Shown here piece by piece: positions 41,995 through 59,533 of a stretch of 64,000 bases of DNA (within the stretch, counting starts at the first letter, position 1; each line of letters begins with the position of its first letter). The position numbers and the translations under genes were made by a program. The DNA comes from an uncultured Candidatus Saccharibacteria bacterium (lineage in GTDB: Bacteria; Patescibacteriota; Minisyncoccia; Minisyncoccales; UBA10102). The notes beneath the pieces are model-generated. The model was not told the origin of the DNA. It saw only the letters and a program-made list of their open reading frames with translations, and searched no databases. Location: contig CAYZNF010000004.1 in the NCBI GenBank assembly GCA_964479725.1, positions 12,002 to 76,001 of the forward strand, written 5' to 3'.

Positions 41995-43284
41995 ATGAAA
42001 GCGCTAATTAAACGGCTCATCCCAAAACAATTTTGGGGCTGGTATCATTTTTCTTTGGCTTTGCGGGGGGCTATCCGATATGGTTTTCCTTCAAAAAAAC
42101 TCATAGTCATTGGTGTTACAGGCACCGACGGCAAATCTACTACAACTGAAATGATAGTAAGGGTGCTAAAAGAAGCTGGCTATAAAACAGCTTCCACGTC
42201 TTCTGTTTGGTTCCAAATAGGAGACGCAAAAGAGAAAAACCCTTTGAAAATGAGCATGCCGGGCAAGTCTTTTCTCCAAAGCTTTTTGGCAAAAGCGGTA
42301 AAAGAAGGATGTACCCATGCCGTGCTCGAGGTAAGCTCGGAGGGTATTCTCCAGCACCGCCATCGTTTTATTGATTTTCATACGGCCGTATTTACCAATA
42401 TTTACCCAGAACATATTGAAAGACACGGCTCCTTTGAAAAATATTTGTCAGAAAAGCAAAAGCTTTTTCGCGCGGCAAAACAAGTGCATGTCATAAATAC
42501 AGACGACAAAAATGCCCCCCAGTTCCTTAAATTTGGGGCAAAGCACGCCTATGGTTTTGGGTTTGGAGAAAAACAAAAATATTCCGAAGTCGAAAAATAT
42601 ATACGGGCGGAAAGCGTAGAAGATACAAAAAACGGGGTGCGTTTTTTGGTAAACGGAACGCAATTTCAGCTCCAGCTTTTGGGGTGGTTTAACGCCATGA
42701 ATGCCTTGGCGGCAATTTGCGTTGCCGACTCTCAAAATATTCCCTTGGCAAAAGCAAAAACCGCTTTGGAAAAAATGGATGCCATGCCCGGGCGTATGGA
42801 GGTTGTTATTCGAGAGCCGTTCACTGTTATCGTTGATTATGCAGTAACTCCCGAAGCCTATGAAAATTTATACAAAGCCGCGCGGCAATTATTCCAGCCT
42901 CGAAAAATGATTGCGGTGTTTGGCGCGGCAGGAGGGGGGAGGGATACATGGAAAAGGCCTTTGCTTGGGAAGATTGCCGCGGAATATTGCGACGAGATTA
43001 TTTTGACCAACGAAGATCCTTATGATGAAGATCCGCTACAGATTTTATCGGAGATAAAATCTGGAATTACCAATACCCAATTTCCAATGACCAATGTCTT
43101 GGAAATCTTAGATAGAAGAGAGGCGATACGAAAAGCCCTGTCTATAGCAAAAGAGGGAGACGTAGTTGTGCTTACCGGCAAGGGGAGCGAAGACGCTATT
43201 GCTGTTGCCGGAGGAAAAAAGATTCCTTGGAGTGAACGAGGCGTTGTTGAGGAGGAAATAAAAAAAATTGGAGCTGGAACGTAA
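41995..43284 (+). CDS. Mur ligase family protein (MurE-like UDP-MurNAc-tripeptide synthetase type)
   Basis: VIGVTGTDGKSTTTEMI (Mur ligase P-loop), HAVLEVSSEG, DYAVTPEA, NEDPYDEDP. Confidence 0.7.
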   Translation: MKALIKRLIPKQFWGWYHFSLALRGAIRYGFPSKKLIVIGVTGTDGKSTTTEMIVRVLKEAGYKTASTSSVWFQIGDAKEKNPLKMSMPGKSFLQSFLAKAVKEGCTHAVLEVSSEGILQHRHRFIDFHTAVFTNIYPEHIERHGSFEKYLSEKQKLFRAAKQVHVINTDDKNAPQFLKFGAKHAYGFGFGEKQKYSEVEKYIRAESVEDTKNGVRFLVNGTQFQLQLLGWFNAMNALAAICVADSQNIPLAKAKTALEKMDAMPGRMEVVIREPFTVIVDYAVTPEAYENLYKAARQLFQPRKMIAVFGAAGGGRDTWKRPLLGKIAAEYCDEIILTNEDPYDEDPLQILSEIKSGITNTQFPMTNVLEILDRREAIRKALSIAKEGDVVVLTGKGSEDAIAVAGGKKIPWSERGVVEEEIKKIGAGT

Positions 43285-43581: not shown

Positions 43582-43797
43582 ATGGGCAAAAAATCTCCGT
43601 TTCCCAAAAGCACCAGAAAGTTTATTCGCAGTGAAAAGGCCCGTATTCGGCGCACCTTCGGCAGTTTAGAAGAGCAAAGAGCCAAGATCGCTGAATTGTA
43701 CGCTCGCCTTGCGCCCAAAGTAAAACAAACGGAAACCGGTGAGGTCAAAGCGCCTAATGCCCCAGAAAAGCAGGAAGCCGCGCCAGCGGCAAAGTAG
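43582..43797 (+). CDS. Hypothetical small basic protein (71 aa)
   Basis: MGKKSPFPKSTRKFIRSEKARIRRTFGSLEEQRAKIAELYARL.... It lies 6 nt upstream of the SpoU-family gene. Confidence 0.4.
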   Translation: MGKKSPFPKSTRKFIRSEKARIRRTFGSLEEQRAKIAELYARLAPKVKQTETGEVKAPNAPEKQEAAPAAK

Positions 43798-43803
43798 CCC
43801 AAA

Positions 43804-44271
43804 GTGGAAAAGGAATTTTTTGTTATCGTTGACAACGTCCGAAGTCTTGAAAATGTCGGTTCGATATTCCGTACTGCCGATGCTTTTGGCGCAACAAAAA
43901 TATTTCTCTGCGGCATTACCGGAATACCCCACGGAAAAGGGGATAAAATTTCAAAAACAGCCCTGGGAGCAGAGCAATGGATTCCCTGGGAATACCATAA
44001 GCAAACGTGGCGGGTGGTTGAAAAAATGAAACGAGCAAGAGTGTTTATCGCGGCTTTAGAGCAAACATCTAAAAGTGTCCCATTGGATAAATTTATCCCC
44101 AGATTTCCTTTGGCATTAGTGGTAGGAAACGAAGTAGAAGGCGTTTCTTCTTCTGTGCTGGAAAGAGCGGATGCTTGTGTTGAAATCCCAATGTCTGGAA
44201 AGAAGGAATCACTCAATGTTGCCGTGGCTTTTGGCATCGCCGCCCACGCAATTGCGAGATATCGCAATTGA
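43804..44271 (+). CDS. SpoU/TrmH-family RNA 2'-O-methyltransferase
   Basis: VDNVRSLENVGSIFRTADAFG, ALVVGNEVEGVS, ESLNVAVAFGIAAH (the three SpoU motifs). GTG start. Confidence 0.8.
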   Translation: MEKEFFVIVDNVRSLENVGSIFRTADAFGATKIFLCGITGIPHGKGDKISKTALGAEQWIPWEYHKQTWRVVEKMKRARVFIAALEQTSKSVPLDKFIPRFPLALVVGNEVEGVSSSVLERADACVEIPMSGKKESLNVAVAFGIAAHAIARYRN

Positions 44272-44288
44272 CCAGTCGGTGCTTTCAT

Positions 44289-44365
44289 GTCCTCGTAGCT
44301 TAGTGGATAGAGCGCTTCCCTCCCTCTGGGCCGTACGGCCCGACGGGCCGGAGGCCGAAGGAAAG
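44289..44365 (+). pseudogene. tRNA-Arg 5'-half fragment with a 33-nt GC-rich insertion in the anticodon loop
   Basis: 44289-44323 is identical to 44614-44648 (acceptor 5' strand, D arm, 5' anticodon stem, loop CTCC). Next comes ctctgggccgtacggcccgacgggccggaggcc, then gaaggaaag, which matches the tRNA's gaaggaaga at 8 of 9 positions. Homology is then lost. Confidence 0.7.
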
Positions 44366-44374
44366 CTAAATTCC

Positions 44375-44623
44375 ATGTTTTGCGTATATTTACTTCAAAG
44401 CGAAAAAGATAACAGTTTTTATATAGGCCAAACTAATGATTTGGAAAAAAGACTTGCTCGGCATAATAACGGTTTCGTGGTTTCTACAAAAAAGAAGATT
44501 CCTTGGTGTTTGCTTGGGTATGAAAAGTATCAGTCGCGCAATGAGGCGCGATGGCGCGAACACGAATTGAAACAAAGTTATTCGAAAAAGAGAAAGTTTA
44601 TTGAAAGTTTTTTGTCCTCGTAG
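44375..44623 (+). CDS. GIY-YIG nuclease-domain miniprotein (82 aa)
   Basis: MFCVYLLQSEKDNSFYIGQTNDLEKRLARHNNG...WCLLGYEKYQSRNEARWREHELKQ has the GIY...YIG, R and E motif order. The last 10 nt, including the stop, overlap the 5' end of the intact tRNA-Arg. Confidence 0.75.
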   Translation: MFCVYLLQSEKDNSFYIGQTNDLEKRLARHNNGFVVSTKKKIPWCLLGYEKYQSRNEARWREHELKQSYSKKRKFIESFLSS

Positions 44624-44686
44624 CTTAGTGGATAGAGCGCTTCCCTCCGAAGGAAGAGGTCAGAGGTTCAAATCCTCTCGAGGACA
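44614..44686 (+). tRNA. tRNA-Arg (anticodon CCG), 73 nt, no encoded CCA
   Basis: Manual cloverleaf: GTCCTCG TA GCTT AGTGGATA GAGC G CTTCC CTCCGAA GGAAG AGGTC AGAGG TTCAAAT CCTCT CGAGGAC A. Confidence 0.85.
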
Positions 44687-44744
44687 CCCCGCGTGATCCG
44701 CCGGCCGCAAACCGGCGATTGAGCAAACCGAAACCATCTCGCGC

Positions 44745-44773
44745 TTGACATCTCGTTAGGTGGTGGTAATAAA
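44745..44773 (+). promoter_or_regulatory. Promoter of the tRNA-adjacent island gene
   Basis: TTGACA-N16/17-TAATAA(A), then AGGAG 7 nt before the ATG at 44788. Confidence 0.45.
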
Positions 44774-44787
44774 GTAGGAGAAACCGT

Positions 44788-45540
44788 ATGGATGTATCCA
44801 ATCTAGAACAACATGTTGTGGCATTTATCGCGTGGATCAAAGACGCGTCTACCGGCATTGTGCCGTTCAATTACATTGATCCGGCGATGCGTGAAGCGGA
44901 TGCTCTATATGAGATACTCCTTGAGATGGCAAGGAATGATGTTGAGCGTCGCCAAGCACGCGTGATGTACGAGCAACACCGTGATACCCTTACGGGAGGA
45001 AAAGAGACGCCAGGAACAGAACTGATCGTCGCAACCCTGCGATCAGTGAGCAGAACAGTTGACGAAAAAAGACTCCTGGGAGCGATACACGAGCGCCTGT
45101 CTAGGCGCCACGAGAATGGCTCGGGGTACATCGTCCGTGTCTTGGGGCTGGAACCCGAAGTCCGTCGAATCGGAATTGAAAGGGTTTGCGTGATAGCTAG
45201 GATCTTCTATGAGGTGATACACCAAGGGCGACGCCTGGGGGATTACAAGATCGTGGTCTATTTGTATGATAATGGCGCTGAATGGGTTGGCATAGATATC
45301 TCTGGGGCGTTCGATCACAGTCTACGCGAAACCTTGAAGTACATAGACCTTGAGGTCATAGGCGGACACGAACTGGCGACCATCGAAAAGAACAATGGAG
45401 TTCCATCGATGCAGCTACAGGCTCTCGCCGCACGGCTCCGGGGGTATCAGCATTCCGATGTTGAAGCAACAGTCCGTGAGATCCTTGAGGACCGCTTCGG
45501 TAAACAGGCGAATCATGACCTCGTGCTGTGGAACAACTAG
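44788..45540 (+). CDS. Hypothetical protein (250 aa), GC-shifted island next to tRNA-Arg
   Basis: Clean ORF with promoter and SD. GC is 53% in 45001-45100. I recognise no motif. Confidence 0.55.
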   Translation: MDVSNLEQHVVAFIAWIKDASTGIVPFNYIDPAMREADALYEILLEMARNDVERRQARVMYEQHRDTLTGGKETPGTELIVATLRSVSRTVDEKRLLGAIHERLSRRHENGSGYIVRVLGLEPEVRRIGIERVCVIARIFYEVIHQGRRLGDYKIVVYLYDNGAEWVGIDISGAFDHSLRETLKYIDLEVIGGHELATIEKNNGVPSMQLQALAARLRGYQHSDVEATVREILEDRFGKQANHDLVLWNN

Positions 45541-45972
45541 TTTGAGATTATGGATTGGGACGAAGCCGGAGTCGCCTTTTCCATGGATTTCGATATCGAA
45601 AGACATGAAGAAAAGGTCGGCCTCATTGAGGTAGGAGTATCTATAATGTCCAGAGATATGATACAGGCCACACTCTCTGATGCAAAGCGCCTGTAAGTGT
45701 CGCACATCCCCCTTCTGCGGAAAGCGTTGATGGTGAAGGAATCAAGGCAAGGCATGCCCTATCCGGGTCTGTCAAGCGCCGGTCGTGCAACTGGTGGGTG
45801 ATAGCTGCTCACAGAACAGGCATCCATTACTAGCAGATCCTGTATCTCCCACAACTCCCTAATGATGAGGTTCCAATCAAATCCGGTGGGGTACACGCAT
45901 ATCAGTAGTATGTATATTTGAGCTTAAGTTGTCTCCCCTCCCGTCTTACCCATTGAGACGAGGGACACAGTA

Positions 45973-46422
45973 CTAGTCCTCCTCGAAGAAGCGTCCGTGA
46001 GTGCGCAAAATGCGCTCAACCTTTTCTGGAGTACTTCCCACCACAAAGGCGGAGAGGTGGTAACCACCGAATTCCCTGTTCCAGAGTATAGCTGAACCGT
46101 GGATGGCGTCGAGGAATAGAGGGTCGCCCGGCCGTTGAGGTCTGGCCATCTGAAGTCGACGACCGGTGGGCTGGCCGTCTGTACCTAGGTCATCCTTTAC
46201 CCACCGCCAAAAGAACGTACTGTGGTCATGGATGTATCTAGCAAGGTCTTCTCTCACTTGTGCATCTTTGATATCAATGACGACGTGCCGGTCGTTCGTT
46301 ACATAGATTGCCCCAATCTCTATCATCAGATGATCGCTTGGGGCAGTTGATTCGGCATTGGCCCTTCGGCCGCGGATTATGAGTTTTTCCATTGTATTGG
46401 GATTTCCATCCTTGTATTGCAT
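45973..46422 (-). CDS. Hypothetical protein (149 aa), GC-shifted island
   Basis: Clean ORF with no recognisable motif. The start is uncertain (MQYKDG... or the internal MEKLIIRG...). Confidence 0.45.
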   Translation of the reverse strand: MQYKDGNPNTMEKLIIRGRRANAESTAPSDHLMIEIGAIYVTNDRHVVIDIKDAQVREDLARYIHDHSTFFWRWVKDDLGTDGQPTGRRLQMARPQRPGDPLFLDAIHGSAILWNREFGGYHLSAFVVGSTPEKVERILRTHGRFFEED

Positions 46423-46625
46423 AGGGCATGTATGGGTAAAGTTGACCTGAGTAGTTACGAAAACACCTTCTAGCTCTTACGATGTGCCTCAATTGCTCTT
46501 GAGGGTTCCAAGCAGACGGCTTCTCCCGAACATCAGAGTGCTATGGTGTGCCTCCTTTTTCCACTGGTCACGCCACTCCTTATATATATTGCTTGCCGTT
46601 TTTGCATATTGCTAAACATGTCATG

Positions 46626-46760
46626 CTAACCGAATTGAATTCCGCAACAGCAGGGGCAGATTCCATCAAATGGGCTCTCCTTATCCCAAGGAACGAAATC
46701 AAGAGCATATCCGCAAGCCGGACACAGATTGGTATTGTTGTAAATGGAATTATTCATCAT
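46626..46760 (-). CDS. Possible zinc-ribbon miniprotein (43-44 aa; not in the ORF track)
   Basis: Manual translation gives (M)MNNSIYNNTNLCPACGYALDFVPWDKESPFDGICPCCCGIQFG. The two Cys pairs CPAC...CPCC are spaced like a zinc ribbon. It starts 6 nt after the vapC stop. I see no SD. Confidence 0.3.
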   Translation of the reverse strand: MMNNSIYNNTNLCPACGYALDFVPWDKESPFDGICPCCCGIQFG

Positions 46761-46766
46761 TTAATT

Positions 46767-47174
46767 TCAATATTTTTCAAAATTGCTTTTGCGCGGAGGA
46801 TATACGGCAATGTCTTTCATCGGAAAATCTTCCAAGTTGTTTGTAATAAGAGTTAAGCCGTGTTGTTTGGCTTGGCTGGCCAAAAAACAATCCAGAAGCT
46901 TTGTTCTGGAAGATGATAGGAATTTCTTTCTATACATTCCCGCGCTGCGGGCGGTGCTTTCTTCGATGGGAAGAATGGGGAAAGCGCGGGCTAGTTTCTC
47001 GAATGCTTTTTTCTCTGGAGCACAAGCTTTTGCCATAAATTCGGCAATCGTTATTACAGAGAGAACTACCGCCCCGTGCTTAATCGCAGTTTTCACAAAT
47101 GAAGCATCTGGCTCATGGCCGTCTATGGCCAAAATGCACACATTAGTATCCAATAGAAACCGGTGGGTATTCAT
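46767..47174 (-). CDS. vapC: PIN-domain toxin (VapC-like)
   Basis: MNTHRFLLDTNVCI...TIAEF...LLDCFLASQA...LITNNLEDF carries the PIN acidic residues. Its ATG overlaps the antitoxin stop (ATGA). Confidence 0.75.
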   Translation of the reverse strand: MNTHRFLLDTNVCILAIDGHEPDASFVKTAIKHGAVVLSVITIAEFMAKACAPEKKAFEKLARAFPILPIEESTARSAGMYRKKFLSSSRTKLLDCFLASQAKQHGLTLITNNLEDFPMKDIAVYPPRKSNFEKY

Positions 47175-47434
47175 TGATCTTGATCTTCGCGCATTTTTCT
47201 CTGCCATTCAATTGCTTTCTCTTTGGTCCATCGGGGGTTTTTTGCGTTTCCGACAACTTCGTTTGCAAGCAGTCCAAGGTCTTGTTTTGTTTTGCACTCT
47301 TTCATTAGGCGTTCTGTCGCTGCGCGTCGAAGATAGGCGCCTAAACTTTCTTTTGTGTTGTGTCTCGCTTGTTCGATTTTTTCTCTAAGGTCCTGCGGAA
47401 GGAGGATTTGGGTTCGTATCAGTTTTTTATTCAT
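47171..47434 (-). CDS. vapB: Ribbon-helix-helix-type antitoxin (VapB-like)
   Basis: LIRTQILLPQDLREKIEQARHNTKESLGAYLRRAATERL. It is 87 aa and translationally coupled to the PIN gene. Confidence 0.6.
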   Translation of the reverse strand: MNKKLIRTQILLPQDLREKIEQARHNTKESLGAYLRRAATERLMKECKTKQDLGLLANEVVGNAKNPRWTKEKAIEWQRKMREDQDQ

Positions 47435-47474
47435 ACATCATAATTATACATCATATGAAGAAAGTTGGTCAAGG

Positions 47475-48242
47475 CTATTGTTTCTTTTCCCCGAAGAATT
47501 GGCTAAGGGATTTGATGCCTTCCATAAACTCTATGGGCAGGGCGAATATGACTGTTTTTGAGGGATCGGGGTTTATTTTTTCGATTGTTTGCAGAGTTCT
47601 TAACGATATTCCCGCGGGAACCGAACTTAGAAGAGTTGCGGCTTTTGAAAGTTTTTCTGCTGCAGTAAACTCTCCTTCTGCCTGGATTATAATGGCGCGG
47701 CGTTCCCTTTCAGCTTCCGCCTGCCTTGCCATGACTCTCTTCATATCCATGGGCAATTCAATGTCTTGTATTTTGATTGATGAAATATCAATTCCCCAAG
47801 GATCCGTTGCCACATCAACAATTTTTTTCATTTCACCTGCAATCTTGTCGCGTTCAGACAGCAGGAAGTCTAATTCAACTCCGCCGATAATATCCCGCAG
47901 GGTGGCTTGGGCGTATAAAGCAACGGCGCTTATGAAATTTTGAATTTCCAGCACAGCTTTCTCGGCCTCTTCTACTTTAAAGTACACGACAGCGTTAATG
48001 CCCACGGTTACATTGTCTTTGGTGATAACCTCCTGTTTTGGAATATCGACAGTCGCAATTCGCAGGTCCACTTTAATCATTCGCTGTATGCCAATAAATA
48101 TCCAGGTAAGCCCTGGCTTTCTTGTGCCGGAATATTTGCCCAGGGTAAGCACGACCCCTCTTTCATATTGGTCTATGACCCGTATGCCCAAAACTCCAAA
48201 CAGGAAAACTATGCCTCCAATAACGTAAAGCGCAATGTCCAT
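47475..48242 (-). CDS. SPFH/band-7 stomatin-like (slipin) protein, backbone GC
   Basis: N-terminal TM helix, then IDQYERGVVLTLGKYSGTRKPGLTWIFIGIQRMIKVDLRIATVDIPKQEVITKDNVTV and AEAERERRAIIIQAEGE. Confidence 0.8.
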   Translation of the reverse strand: MDIALYVIGGIVFLFGVLGIRVIDQYERGVVLTLGKYSGTRKPGLTWIFIGIQRMIKVDLRIATVDIPKQEVITKDNVTVGINAVVYFKVEEAEKAVLEIQNFISAVALYAQATLRDIIGGVELDFLLSERDKIAGEMKKIVDVATDPWGIDISSIKIQDIELPMDMKRVMARQAEAERERRAIIIQAEGEFTAAEKLSKAATLLSSVPAGISLRTLQTIEKINPDPSKTVIFALPIEFMEGIKSLSQFFGEKKQ

Positions 48243-48342
48243 GAGATTTATGTTAGGGTTCTTCTTATACTTTCTCTATAGCAAACCCGCGCCTTAACTG
48301 CAAAACATGACGATAATGTGATAAGATAAGCTCGAACTTTTT

Positions 48343-59176: not shown

Positions 59177-59533
59177 TGGTGGAGATGGAGGGGTTGAACC
59201 CTCGTCCAAAGAAATTTGAAAGAAACTTCTACAGGCGTAGCTCGGTTTTGTGTTGGAAAAGAGGTATTAACCGAGCCAAACCCTCTTTTCCTTTGGCCTG
59301 AAAGTTCGATAGCCGCCTCGGCCCGGGCAAGCTATCCACCTCGATTGCGTTACACCCGTTTCGGTCCATCGAGGATCAACCGGACGAATGGCTTAGCGTT
59401 TAAGCGTAAGCAAGAGCCCTCTGTTGAGGAGCAAATATGTTGGCAATTATATGCCCCAAGGTTTTTTAAAGAGCGCCTTGGAAGCTCTGCCTGCGATTTC
59501 TTCCTCATGTTCTCTGTCGAAACATGCATCCCC
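59177..59533 (-). ncRNA. ssrA: tmRNA (SsrA), ~357 nt
   Basis: On the minus strand the 5' end is GGGGATGCATGTTTCGACAGAG and the 3' end is GGACGAGGGTTCAACCCCTCCATCTCCACCA. The tag reading frame gcc aac ata ttt gct cct caa cag agg gct ctt gct tac gct taa encodes ANIFAPQQRALAYA (59400-59444). Confidence 0.9.

Follow-up and report, generated by a model that had tools for sequence, protein, structure and literature searches.

A compact GIY-YIG nuclease cassette at a tRNA-Arg(CCG) gene of Candidatus Saccharibacteria, probably a selfish element that carries a rescue copy of its target

In fungal mitochondria, the elements known as mORFs, found in atp6 of Allomyces macrogynus and as atp6, atp9, cox2, and nad3 hybrids in Glomus, carry the C-terminal part of their target gene and push aside the native counterpart; the two parts may diverge in sequence, a sign of horizontal transfer (PMC3630166). 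Patescibacteria harbor group I introns at position 35/36 of tRNA genes, which are self-splicing ribozymes of 184 to 894 nucleotides (nt), some with HNH endonucleases (PMC13011429). Insertions with GIY-YIG open reading frames (ORFs), neither group I nor group II introns, were noted in rRNA genes of the candidate phyla radiation (CPR), where no anatomy was given and the insertions were judged to lie outside homing (PMC11270868). Selfish GIY-YIG enzymes were derived in a 2006 survey from a UvrC-like lineage, other than that of Slx1 (PMC1564403). Here we describe an 82-amino-acid (aa) GIY-YIG minigene in a 64,000-nt stretch of DNA from an uncultured Candidatus Saccharibacteria bacterium (contig CAYZNF010000004.1; the whole stretch is referred to as the window). 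Public records with 100%-identical proteins suggest that the genome is a metagenome-assembled genome of Candidatus Wildermuthbacteria (CPR). Positions 44288-44686 hold, in order, a displaced 5' fragment of tRNA-Arg(CCG), a GC-rich palindromic module (PAL), a short stub of the tRNA, a leader, the nuclease ORF, and an intact tRNA-Arg(CCG) gene. We interpret this arrangement, with a probability of roughly 0.65, as one copy of a compact selfish homing-type cassette that invaded tRNA-Arg(CCG) at 35/36 and carries a rescue copy of its target.

The repeat that marks the locus is exact. Positions 44288-44323 and 44613-44648 are identical at 36 of 36 nt, as stated in the original prediction, which had been made from the letters of the window; with two mismatches the match stretches to 41 nt (44283-44323 and 44608-44648), and no other repeat of that size occurs within the 2-kb region. 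The downstream copy opens the expected cloverleaf, recovered by both ARAGORN and Rfam (Table 1). The upstream copy starts 17 nt past the stop codon of a TrmH/SpoU gene and went unrecognized as a tRNA both by Rfam and by ARAGORN, whether or not intron models were used; it is a nonfunctional, dead 5' remnant. Directly after anticodon position 35 comes the predicted 33-nt GC-rich insert, which has three arms (GGGCC/GGCCC/GGGCC) framed by CTCT..GGAG and contains the perfect palindrome GGGCCGTACGGCCC at 44328-44341. The 3' anticodon-stem stub beyond it, GAAGGAAAG, resembles the tRNA less closely than the 8 of 9 positions claimed: 7 of 9 match ungapped, or 9 of 10 columns once one 1-nt gap is allowed. 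The ORF then runs into the intact tRNA as predicted, its last three codons and stop lying inside tRNA positions 1-10, and the TAG at 44621-44623 being tRNA U8-A9-G10. Within the window the GIY-YIG ORF is present once, the tRNA 3' part occurs once (0 expected), and the PAL pattern gave three overlapping matches, all at the 44324-44356 site (0.13 expected); nothing else in the 64 kb resembles the ORF, the PAL insert, or the tRNA 3' part, and past the window tRNA we found neither a tRNA 3' part nor a PAL consensus. The possibility that PAL is a genome-wide repeat was considered and is ruled out in the window, given a single site in the 64 kb.

The minigene product matched PF01541 over residues 1-72 with 53.2 bits against a cutoff of 22.6 (E = 3.9e-14). 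An alignment of 18 relatives has Y5, Y16, G18, R26, H30, and E62 invariant, and the residues of the GIY-YIG catalytic motif are present. A profile search of the PDB returned the UPF0213 proteins BH0048 (1zg2, 6.5e-17) and EF2693 (1ywl, 3.8e-13), followed by SLX1 (4.4e-8), I-TevI (0.09), and UvrC (0.42). The AlphaFold2 model, with a predicted local distance difference test (pLDDT) score of 96.7, adopts the GIY-YIG fold, with strands E2-9, E15-20, and E44-52 and three helices. Foldseek identified UPF0213, Slx1, I-TevI, and UvrC as fold matches, Slx1 with a query TM score (TMq) of 0.75 and a root mean square deviation of 1.5 Å versus a TMq of 0.49 for I-TevI. To our knowledge, structure-specific cleavage of branched DNA within the Slx1 clade is established for eukaryotic Slx1-Slx4 only. 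No invariant Asn follows E62 and the 82 residues leave no auxiliary domain, which are the features that set the Slx1-like clade apart (PMC1564403). Profile and model together indicate that the predicted nuclease is of the Slx1/UPF0213 type and not a classical homing endonuclease of the I-TevI type.

The same arrangement recurs far beyond the window. The comparison covered 104 loci. An alignment of seven sequences yielded 21 in GTDB species representatives and 80 in metagenomes, two more (L102 and L103) came from an exact protein look-up, and the window itself was the last. In about 35 of the 104, the end of the ORF falls at an intact tRNA gene on the same strand, either inside it or no more than a few bases away, and eight tRNA types are represented (Arg-CCG and Arg-GCG, Asp, Asn, Trp, Val, Glu, Gly, and Pro). 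Among the hosts are Doudna-, Kerfeld-, Morani-, and Vogelbacteria, together with Aminicenantia, KSB1, and one gammaproteobacterial metagenome-assembled genome (MAG). All but two of these ~35 loci have a copy of the tRNA 5' part 40-90 nt upstream of the ATG, broken by a GC-rich palindrome; in many, the copy spans 22-39 nt and is exactly identical to the intact tRNA. The stop codon of the ORF coincides with tRNA U8-A9-G10 in the Arg, Asn, Trp, Val, and Pro loci. Because arrangement, exact fragments, and stop position recur across loci, chance and assembly error are ruled out, and the concern that the upstream fragment might be an assembly duplication falls away, since more than 25 assemblies, independent of one another, have this architecture.

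The fragments share a common form, in which tRNA positions 1 to x are followed by the GC-rich palindromic module, tRNA positions x+1 to y, an AT-rich leader (9-15 nt in the related loci), and the ATG. The stub after PAL (y-x) measures ~6-25 nt; stubs of 6-20 nt, similar to that of the window, are seen in L020, L072, L086, L087, L023, L103, and L102. In about 20 of 22 cases, the breakpoint x lies in the D-loop (14-22), the anticodon loop (35-38), or the T-loop (53/54). The proposal that a GIY-YIG element struck the anticodon-loop region of the tRNA is thus supported by recurrence of the layout and of its breakpoint; 35/36 was found in tRNA-Arg (window, L020, L102, L001, L022 twice, and L026) and in tRNA-Glu. 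A carried tRNA that replaces a broken native part was seen in the window and in ~30 further loci, and the carried and displaced copies differ in sequence in L040, L048, L026, L001, L023, L090, and L102.

The anatomy of a complete copy is seen in L040, where the order is native tRNA-Val(GAC) positions 1-21, PAL, stub and leader, ORF, an intact, different tRNA-Val that overlaps the ORF end, a 28-nt spacer, a second PAL, and native positions 22-76. The native tRNA-Val is cut cleanly at 21/22; its pieces, rejoined, form a perfect cloverleaf that ARAGORN calls as tRNA-Val(GAC), with acceptor stem GCGCGAT/ATCGCGC. Zero bases of the target are duplicated or lost, and there is no target-site duplication. 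This anatomy argues that the complete element is a PAL-bounded cassette with its own working tRNA, and that the upstream fragment is a native remnant. The earlier claim that the 5' half is present twice while the tRNA is kept intact gains support from this locus, in which the cassette physically splits the native tRNA, and the reading of the locus as the mirror image of integrase-type 3'-end duplication was upheld by the locus comparison. The comparison refines that picture in one respect: judged by these sequences, complete copies hold a whole replacement tRNA with a PAL on both sides, and the window copy is the left half only.

Traces of the right-hand side were found in several other loci. 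Right-hand PALs lie past the tRNA in L040, L022, L026, and L068; in L022 (twice) and L026 the partial remnant is a PAL at 35/36 followed by the tRNA-Arg 3' part, and in L068 it is a PAL with a tRNA-Pro 3' part. Short native 3' ends remain in L049 and L017, and a stub remnant stands at the contig end in L102. In L014 (3429-3534), a full-length tRNA-Asp with its own 5' flank has positions 38-49 replaced by the 16-nt hairpin of the displaced fragment and is still called as a tRNA by ARAGORN; both native tandem tRNA-Asp copies seem to have been hit there, with the cassette's tRNA-Asp the sole intact one. L102 contains three different tRNA-Arg(CCG) variants and three PALs. In L095 (1690-1890), two extra tandem units, each made of ~26 nt of 5' flank and tRNA-Glu 1-35, stand upstream of the fragment-PAL-ORF-tRNA unit; each has a different 45-nt palindrome, of another PAL type, at 21/22 and ends at position 35. 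By their sequences, the L102 and L095 arrays look like debris of repeated invasions.

The original prediction noted a GC-rich hairpin insert; its presence stands, and its status is changed from a mere insert to a conserved palindromic module that accompanies the ORF. Related modules occur 14-70 nt upstream of the ORF in most related loci. The common form is 29 nt, CTCYGG-a-TAC-a'-GTA-a-GGAG, alongside 13-21-nt hairpin forms and clade-specific variants. Across ten 29-nt copies, both alternative hairpins (a/a' and a'/second a) are 97-98% paired, three of five pairs changed on both sides with zero one-sided (G-U) changes, and the pairing score was reached by 0 of 500 shuffles. PAL keeps its form when reverse-complemented, and either arm order relative to the ORF occurs. 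This symmetric form and the strict Watson-Crick pairing suggest, short of proof, a structure at the DNA level. RNA folding of the fragment-PAL-leader segment was unexceptional (z = -1.7), and with no G-U intermediates either, we lean toward a DNA-level role. PAL type covaries with ORF clade, and PALs are nested inside PALs in L102 and L039. From this comparison, PAL is a conserved module that travels with the ORF and no incidental insert. Two further hairpin arrangements were observed. In L002 (2568-2917) and L027 (1930-2279), the ORF lies between 26-nt hairpin direct repeats, ATCTCCGATTCGGCAGAATCGGAGAT, with a run of similar hairpin units upstream; in L059 (~910-1010) and L060 (~2280-2380), the tRNA-Asn(GTT) 3' of the ORF has a 29-nt PAL between T-stem and T-loop and was missed by ARAGORN.

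Phylogeny and flanking sequence point to movement between hosts. In a neighbor-joining tree of 81 distinct ORFs, the sequences grouped by target across hosts of different phyla, with one clade for Arg (to which the window belongs), one for Glu, and two for Asp, a group for Asn, and a further clade located within four-helix-bundle genes. Between L086 and L087, similarity is limited to the 414 nt (92.8%) that begin with the fragment and end with the tRNA; the flanks are unrelated, and the ORFs share 95% identity. L086 and L095 match in their flanks (85.5% over 1.7 kb) and have the same tRNA sequence, but ORF identity is only 82%. Similarity between the window and L102 is confined to 44288-44687, with 70% protein identity. 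These target-specific lineages and the incongruence between ORF and host context indicate that the element is mobile. Decay is also evident: the ORFs of L020 (3001-3206) and L057 (975-1211) have in-frame stops while fragment, PAL, and tRNA are still there, so on sequence grounds these are decaying copies, as expected of a selfish gene. Extra PALs or fragments have built up in L102, L041, and L095. For phage carriers, a pattern scan of IMG/VR returned no relatives.

The family is not restricted to tRNA genes. About 25 relatives sit inside four-helix-bundle (TIGR02436, Avd-like) genes (Table 1), where they split the conserved IPxxIAEGY motif. A 17-nt PAL, GGCTCCGCCCCGGAGGG, stands at both sides of these inserts, its 5' copy providing the GGAGG ahead of the ATG, and once the insert is removed, the encoded protein matches TIGR02436 over its full length; these inserts bring no rescue copy, and the host gene is left as two ORFs. 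Precise insertion without target-site duplication was found in these genes and in L040, and the window copy would have arrived in the same manner. In L004, L028, L058, L073, and L076, PAL and ORF precede a four-helix-bundle gene, which is bAvd-like by Pfam in L004. L039 (~970-1700) and L041 (~1720-2500) involve a gene for a DUF2341 membrane-anchored protein, of which the first ~40 codons are duplicated upstream, from the start codon; the upstream copy contains one or two PALs, and the intact downstream copy starts with ATA, not ATG, directly after the ORF stop. In L010 (1518-2132), from a Saccharibacteria MAG, the last 33 nt of the ORF overlap the 5' end of the RNase P RNA (Rfam, 173.7 bits), and immediately upstream of the ORF the RNase P 5' segment recurs as an inverted copy, ccccgcacctattagccct. 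A guess that the host gene of L051 and L054 is Y1-transposase-like was unconfirmed by Pfam.

Table 1. Features of the locus, in window coordinates, and the loci inside four-helix-bundle genes
Feature	Position	Strand	Details
Direct repeat copy 1, displaced 5' fragment of tRNA-Arg(CCG)	44288..44323	+	tRNA positions 1-35 = 44289-44323, plus one T before
PAL, 33-nt GC-rich palindromic module CTCTGGGCCGTACGGCCCGACGGGCCGGAGGCC	44324..44356	.	Between tRNA positions 35 and 36 of the displaced fragment
Stub GAAGGAAAG of tRNA positions 36-44	44357..44365	+	7/9 ungapped versus GAAGGAAGA
AT-rich leader CTAAATTCC, 9 nt, ahead of the start codon	44366..44374	+	
GIY-YIG nuclease minigene, 82 aa, predicted Slx1/UPF0213 type, without extra domain	44375..44623	+	Pfam PF01541
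Intact tRNA-Arg(CCG), functional gene	44614..44686	+	ARAGORN 44613-44689; Rfam RF00005, 72.6 bits versus gathering score 29
Direct repeat copy 2	44613-44648	+	First 35 nt of the intact tRNA-Arg(CCG), plus T before
GC-rich hairpin CGCCGG-CCGCAAA-CCGGCG	44699..44717	.	12 nt past the tRNA, read from the sequence
Four-helix-bundle loci	L006, L007, L030-L036, L042-L045, L047, L050, L052, L053, L055, L056, L061, L062, L069, L071, L074, L075		For example, L053:1814-2536

The surroundings of the window copy were also inspected. The hairpin at 44699-44717 passed no similarity test to PAL; it may be a relic of the right-hand PAL or a plain transcript-end hairpin, and its membership in the element is uncertain. 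Directly upstream of the displaced fragment, a gene for a TrmH/SpoU-family tRNA methyltransferase occupies 43804-44271. The 2006 survey reported a TrmH-GIY-YIG fusion protein, taken as a hint of an RNA role (PMC1564403); adjacency of the kind seen in the window could yield fusion-type gene models. The public gene model P0001 (130 aa, 44171-44623) uses an upstream start and is translated through tRNA fragment and PAL; it is probably wrong, because the 82-aa ORF from 44375 matches the conserved N terminus of the family. A 25-nt segment of a Mur ligase gene (42256-42280, minus strand) matches ORF bases 44440-44464, on the opposite strand, at 92% identity (blastn E = 3e-4), probably by chance. Between the tRNA and an amino acid permease gene, in the region 44788-48300, lie ORFs without a Pfam match at 44788-45540 (plus strand) and 45973-46422 (minus strand), a PIN-domain gene at 46767-47207 (minus strand), and an SPFH/Band 7 gene at 47475-48242 (minus strand). 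The G+C content of this island is slightly raised (0.51 at 45-46 kb). The original prediction had linked the island to the cassette, a link that did not hold up: the island contains neither an integrase nor a 3' tRNA repeat, and nothing connects it to the cassette. The syntenic relative L104 runs from TrmH to permease with neither tRNA nor island genes between.

How such an element might persist and spread can be outlined from the loci together. A complete cassette, judged from L040, consists of PAL, a short target stub, leader, GIY-YIG ORF, an intact target tRNA overlapping the ORF end, a spacer, and a second PAL, placed between the native tRNA halves with no target-site duplication. Although the native gene is destroyed, the host would survive on the working tRNA that the cassette brings, joined to the nuclease gene. 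Spread would resemble homing: the nuclease would provoke a break in or near the target, repair from the filled allele would follow, and the tRNA sequence or its halves could serve as homology arms. The left-half form in the window may reflect a deletion, in which the two 3' halves recombined and the native 3' half and PAL on the right were lost, or, alternatively, a right-hand crossover inside the tRNA. The unit would be transcribed from a host promoter upstream of the displaced fragment, and RNase P would free the tRNA, also removing the last codons and stop of the ORF and thereby truncating the nuclease mRNA. A transfer-messenger RNA (tmRNA) gene with the tag peptide APQQRALAYA lies at 59177-59533 (minus strand); it is of interest only because such processing of the cassette transcript would leave a nonstop nuclease mRNA. 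Precise excision of the cassette would follow if the two 36-nt repeats recombined.

Several observations weigh against the interpretation as a selfish cassette with a rescue tRNA. The protein is a catalytic domain alone, without a DNA-binding domain, and the 2006 survey assigned to the Slx1 cluster the stand-alone bacterial GIY-YIG proteins, which it viewed as inherited vertically and as linked to repair (PMC1564403). The intact tRNA of the window equals the displaced fragment through position 35 and leaves the 35/36 site unchanged, so the usual logic of homing immunity is not satisfied, because a nuclease specific for the shared sequence should also cut the functional copy. A fully clean two-sided reconstruction was obtained among the loci only in L040. 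The window copy has no right-hand PAL or native 3' half, and for that reason we infer its history from the other loci. A search through the upstream TrmH homologues of relatives and their contigs found no empty allele of the window locus; no empty site is definable, because the closest TrmH neighbors are ~70% identical and have no tRNA at that place, and one relative shares the Mur ligase-NIF3-TrmH...permease synteny without a tRNA there. A scan of 43700-44900 detected no sigma-70-like promoter, and we therefore only infer transcription from an upstream one.

The palindromes invite a different account, in which a small-transposon-like unit ended by PALs moves by cut-and-paste or copying, the nuclease acts on hairpins or cruciforms at the PAL ends, and the tRNA fragments are captured passengers. 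Direct-repeat PALs on either side of the ORF in the four-helix-bundle class and in L040, the tracking of ORF clade by PAL type, the nesting of PALs in L102 and L039, and the DNA-level structure suggested by strict pairing and by a form that survives reverse complementation would all suit such a unit, and Slx1 relatives are reported to cut branched and hairpin DNA (PMC8287910). We nevertheless consider it unlikely. L040 was entered cleanly, without target-site duplication; PAL is not dispersed, with one site in the 64 kb; target specificity by clade better fits homology-directed copying; and GIY-YIG enzymes hydrolyze DNA, strand transfer by them not being known. A more conservative view would make the ORF an ordinary host gene, a housekeeping Slx1-like repair nuclease cotranscribed with tRNAs, and the upstream fragment an unrelated relic of tandem duplication. 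Stand-alone prokaryotic Slx1-like GIY-YIG genes are indeed widespread and judged vertically inherited (PMC1564403), and some relatives, such as L021, lie close to a tRNA with their own Shine-Dalgarno sequence and no duplication. Such a gene would, however, be hard to reconcile with the fragment-PAL-ORF-tRNA order at eight tRNA types, the split native tRNA in L040, protein-coding genes split at conserved motifs, incongruent ORF and flank similarities, and pseudogenized ORFs; the view is already largely refuted, and we regard it as very improbable.

Two more accounts start from the tRNA itself. Were the tRNA gene interrupted, the upstream 5' half would be exon 1 and the 325 nt to 44648 an intron, group I or protein spliced, encoding its own endonuclease. 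The enrichment of group I introns at tRNA 35/36 in Patescibacteria, some with endonuclease genes (PMC13011429), matches the breakpoint found here. Even so, Rfam gave no group I or group II intron match at E <= 1, the ORF takes up 249 of the 325 nt, and a complete, uninterrupted tRNA comes after it. ARAGORN, run with intron models allowing introns of up to 600 nt, yielded only the contiguous tRNA and no interrupted one. Group I introns require a U at the 5' splice site, and the base ahead of the junction is C35. We give this account hardly any weight. Site-specific integration with a crossover in the tRNA 5' half would likewise leave tRNA direct repeats around inserted DNA, a hallmark of integrase islands (10.1101/2022.07.05.498093). 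The insert is just 325 nt with a single GIY-YIG ORF, no recombinase was found in it or among the ORFs scanned over the next 7 kb, and the window has no 3' tRNA repeat, while a duplication made by assembly is countered by the many independent assemblies that reproduce the architecture; both are refuted for practical purposes.

Returning to the selfish cassette, how an 82-aa domain finds its target may have a speculative answer, to which we assign a low probability: a natural "destroy-and-rescue" drive that owes its target specificity to the pairing and shape of DNA, and not to recognition of DNA sequence by the protein. Filled and empty alleles would pair by means of the tRNA sequence, PAL hairpins at either end of the cassette would form a branched junction exactly at the insertion point, the domain-only Slx1-like nuclease would cut that junction, and repair would copy the cassette, rescue tRNA included, into the empty allele. 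Guidance by structure would explain the target specificity of a nuclease without a DNA-binding domain, the coevolution of PAL and ORF together with the strict Watson-Crick pairing, and the sparing of the intact tRNA that the cassette carries. The targeting mechanism has a modest chance of being new in kind.

If the selfish-cassette interpretation is right, at least one branch of the large, uncharacterized bacterial Slx1-like/UPF0213 family, so far deemed a vertically inherited repair factor, would have a role in selfish mobility. A mobile element would have a route into a single-copy essential RNA gene without splicing, by way of a spare gene copy fused to its own nuclease gene; the fusion would make the element hard to lose and would move tRNA alleles between species. 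It would also account for the partial 5' tRNA fragments of small-genome bacteria and for tRNAs that standard annotation tools miss in them, as well as for annotation errors such as the 130-aa protein across fragment and PAL. The pair of nuclease and palindrome would offer a tractable experimental system for target finding by a minimal nuclease. Our literature search found no description of this cassette architecture, though papers outside the searchable literature may exist; the cassette is apparently a member of an undescribed, widespread, minimal GIY-YIG family that invades conserved genes and carries a replacement for what it breaks.

Several known systems share parts of this anatomy. SegB of phage T4, one of the free-standing GIY-YIG homing endonucleases, is encoded among tRNA genes and favors its own transmission through cleavage of rivals' tRNA-gene region; it differs in its ~220 aa with a DNA-binding domain and in its I-TevI lineage, and neither target duplication nor a palindromic module is known for it. 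The UPF0213 proteins BH0048 and EF2693 and Slx1 are the best sequence and fold matches, with a minimal domain and without the C-terminal Asn of the UvrC/I-TevI lineage; eukaryotic Slx1, however, has a RING domain and needs Slx4, and the bacterial UPF0213 family is not described as mobile. Integrase islands and prophages in tRNA genes likewise bring a tRNA piece that keeps the gene intact and leave a partial copy at the other end, but they depend on a recombinase of the tyrosine or serine type, repeat the 3' part, and span kilobases, whereas here no recombinase was found and an insert of 325 nt comes with a second copy of the 5' part. The Patescibacteria group I introns share the host group, the unusual anticodon-loop position, and, in some cases, a homing endonuclease gene; theirs is a ribozyme with an HNH enzyme and no gene duplication, in contrast to a duplicated tRNA with a GIY-YIG enzyme, no ribozyme match, and no splicing. 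The CPR rRNA insertions (PMC11270868) are also nonintron insertions with a GIY-YIG ORF in a structured-RNA gene of CPR hosts, and they may be related to the cassette family. As in mORFs, a free-standing endonuclease ORF (GIY-YIG in Glomus atp9) enters a conserved gene together with a duplicate of a portion of it, the resulting hybrid works, and the native part is left nearby as a pseudogene. mORFs bring the 3' part and displace the native one downstream in mitochondrial genes, whereas here the 5' part or whole tRNA is brought, the native 5' part lies upstream, the hosts are bacteria, the target is a tRNA, and an 82-aa Slx1-like domain without a DNA-binding module is bounded by a conserved palindromic module. 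By analogy, then, our best reading of the cassette is as a mirror image of the fungal mitochondrial mORFs, the closest mechanism described.

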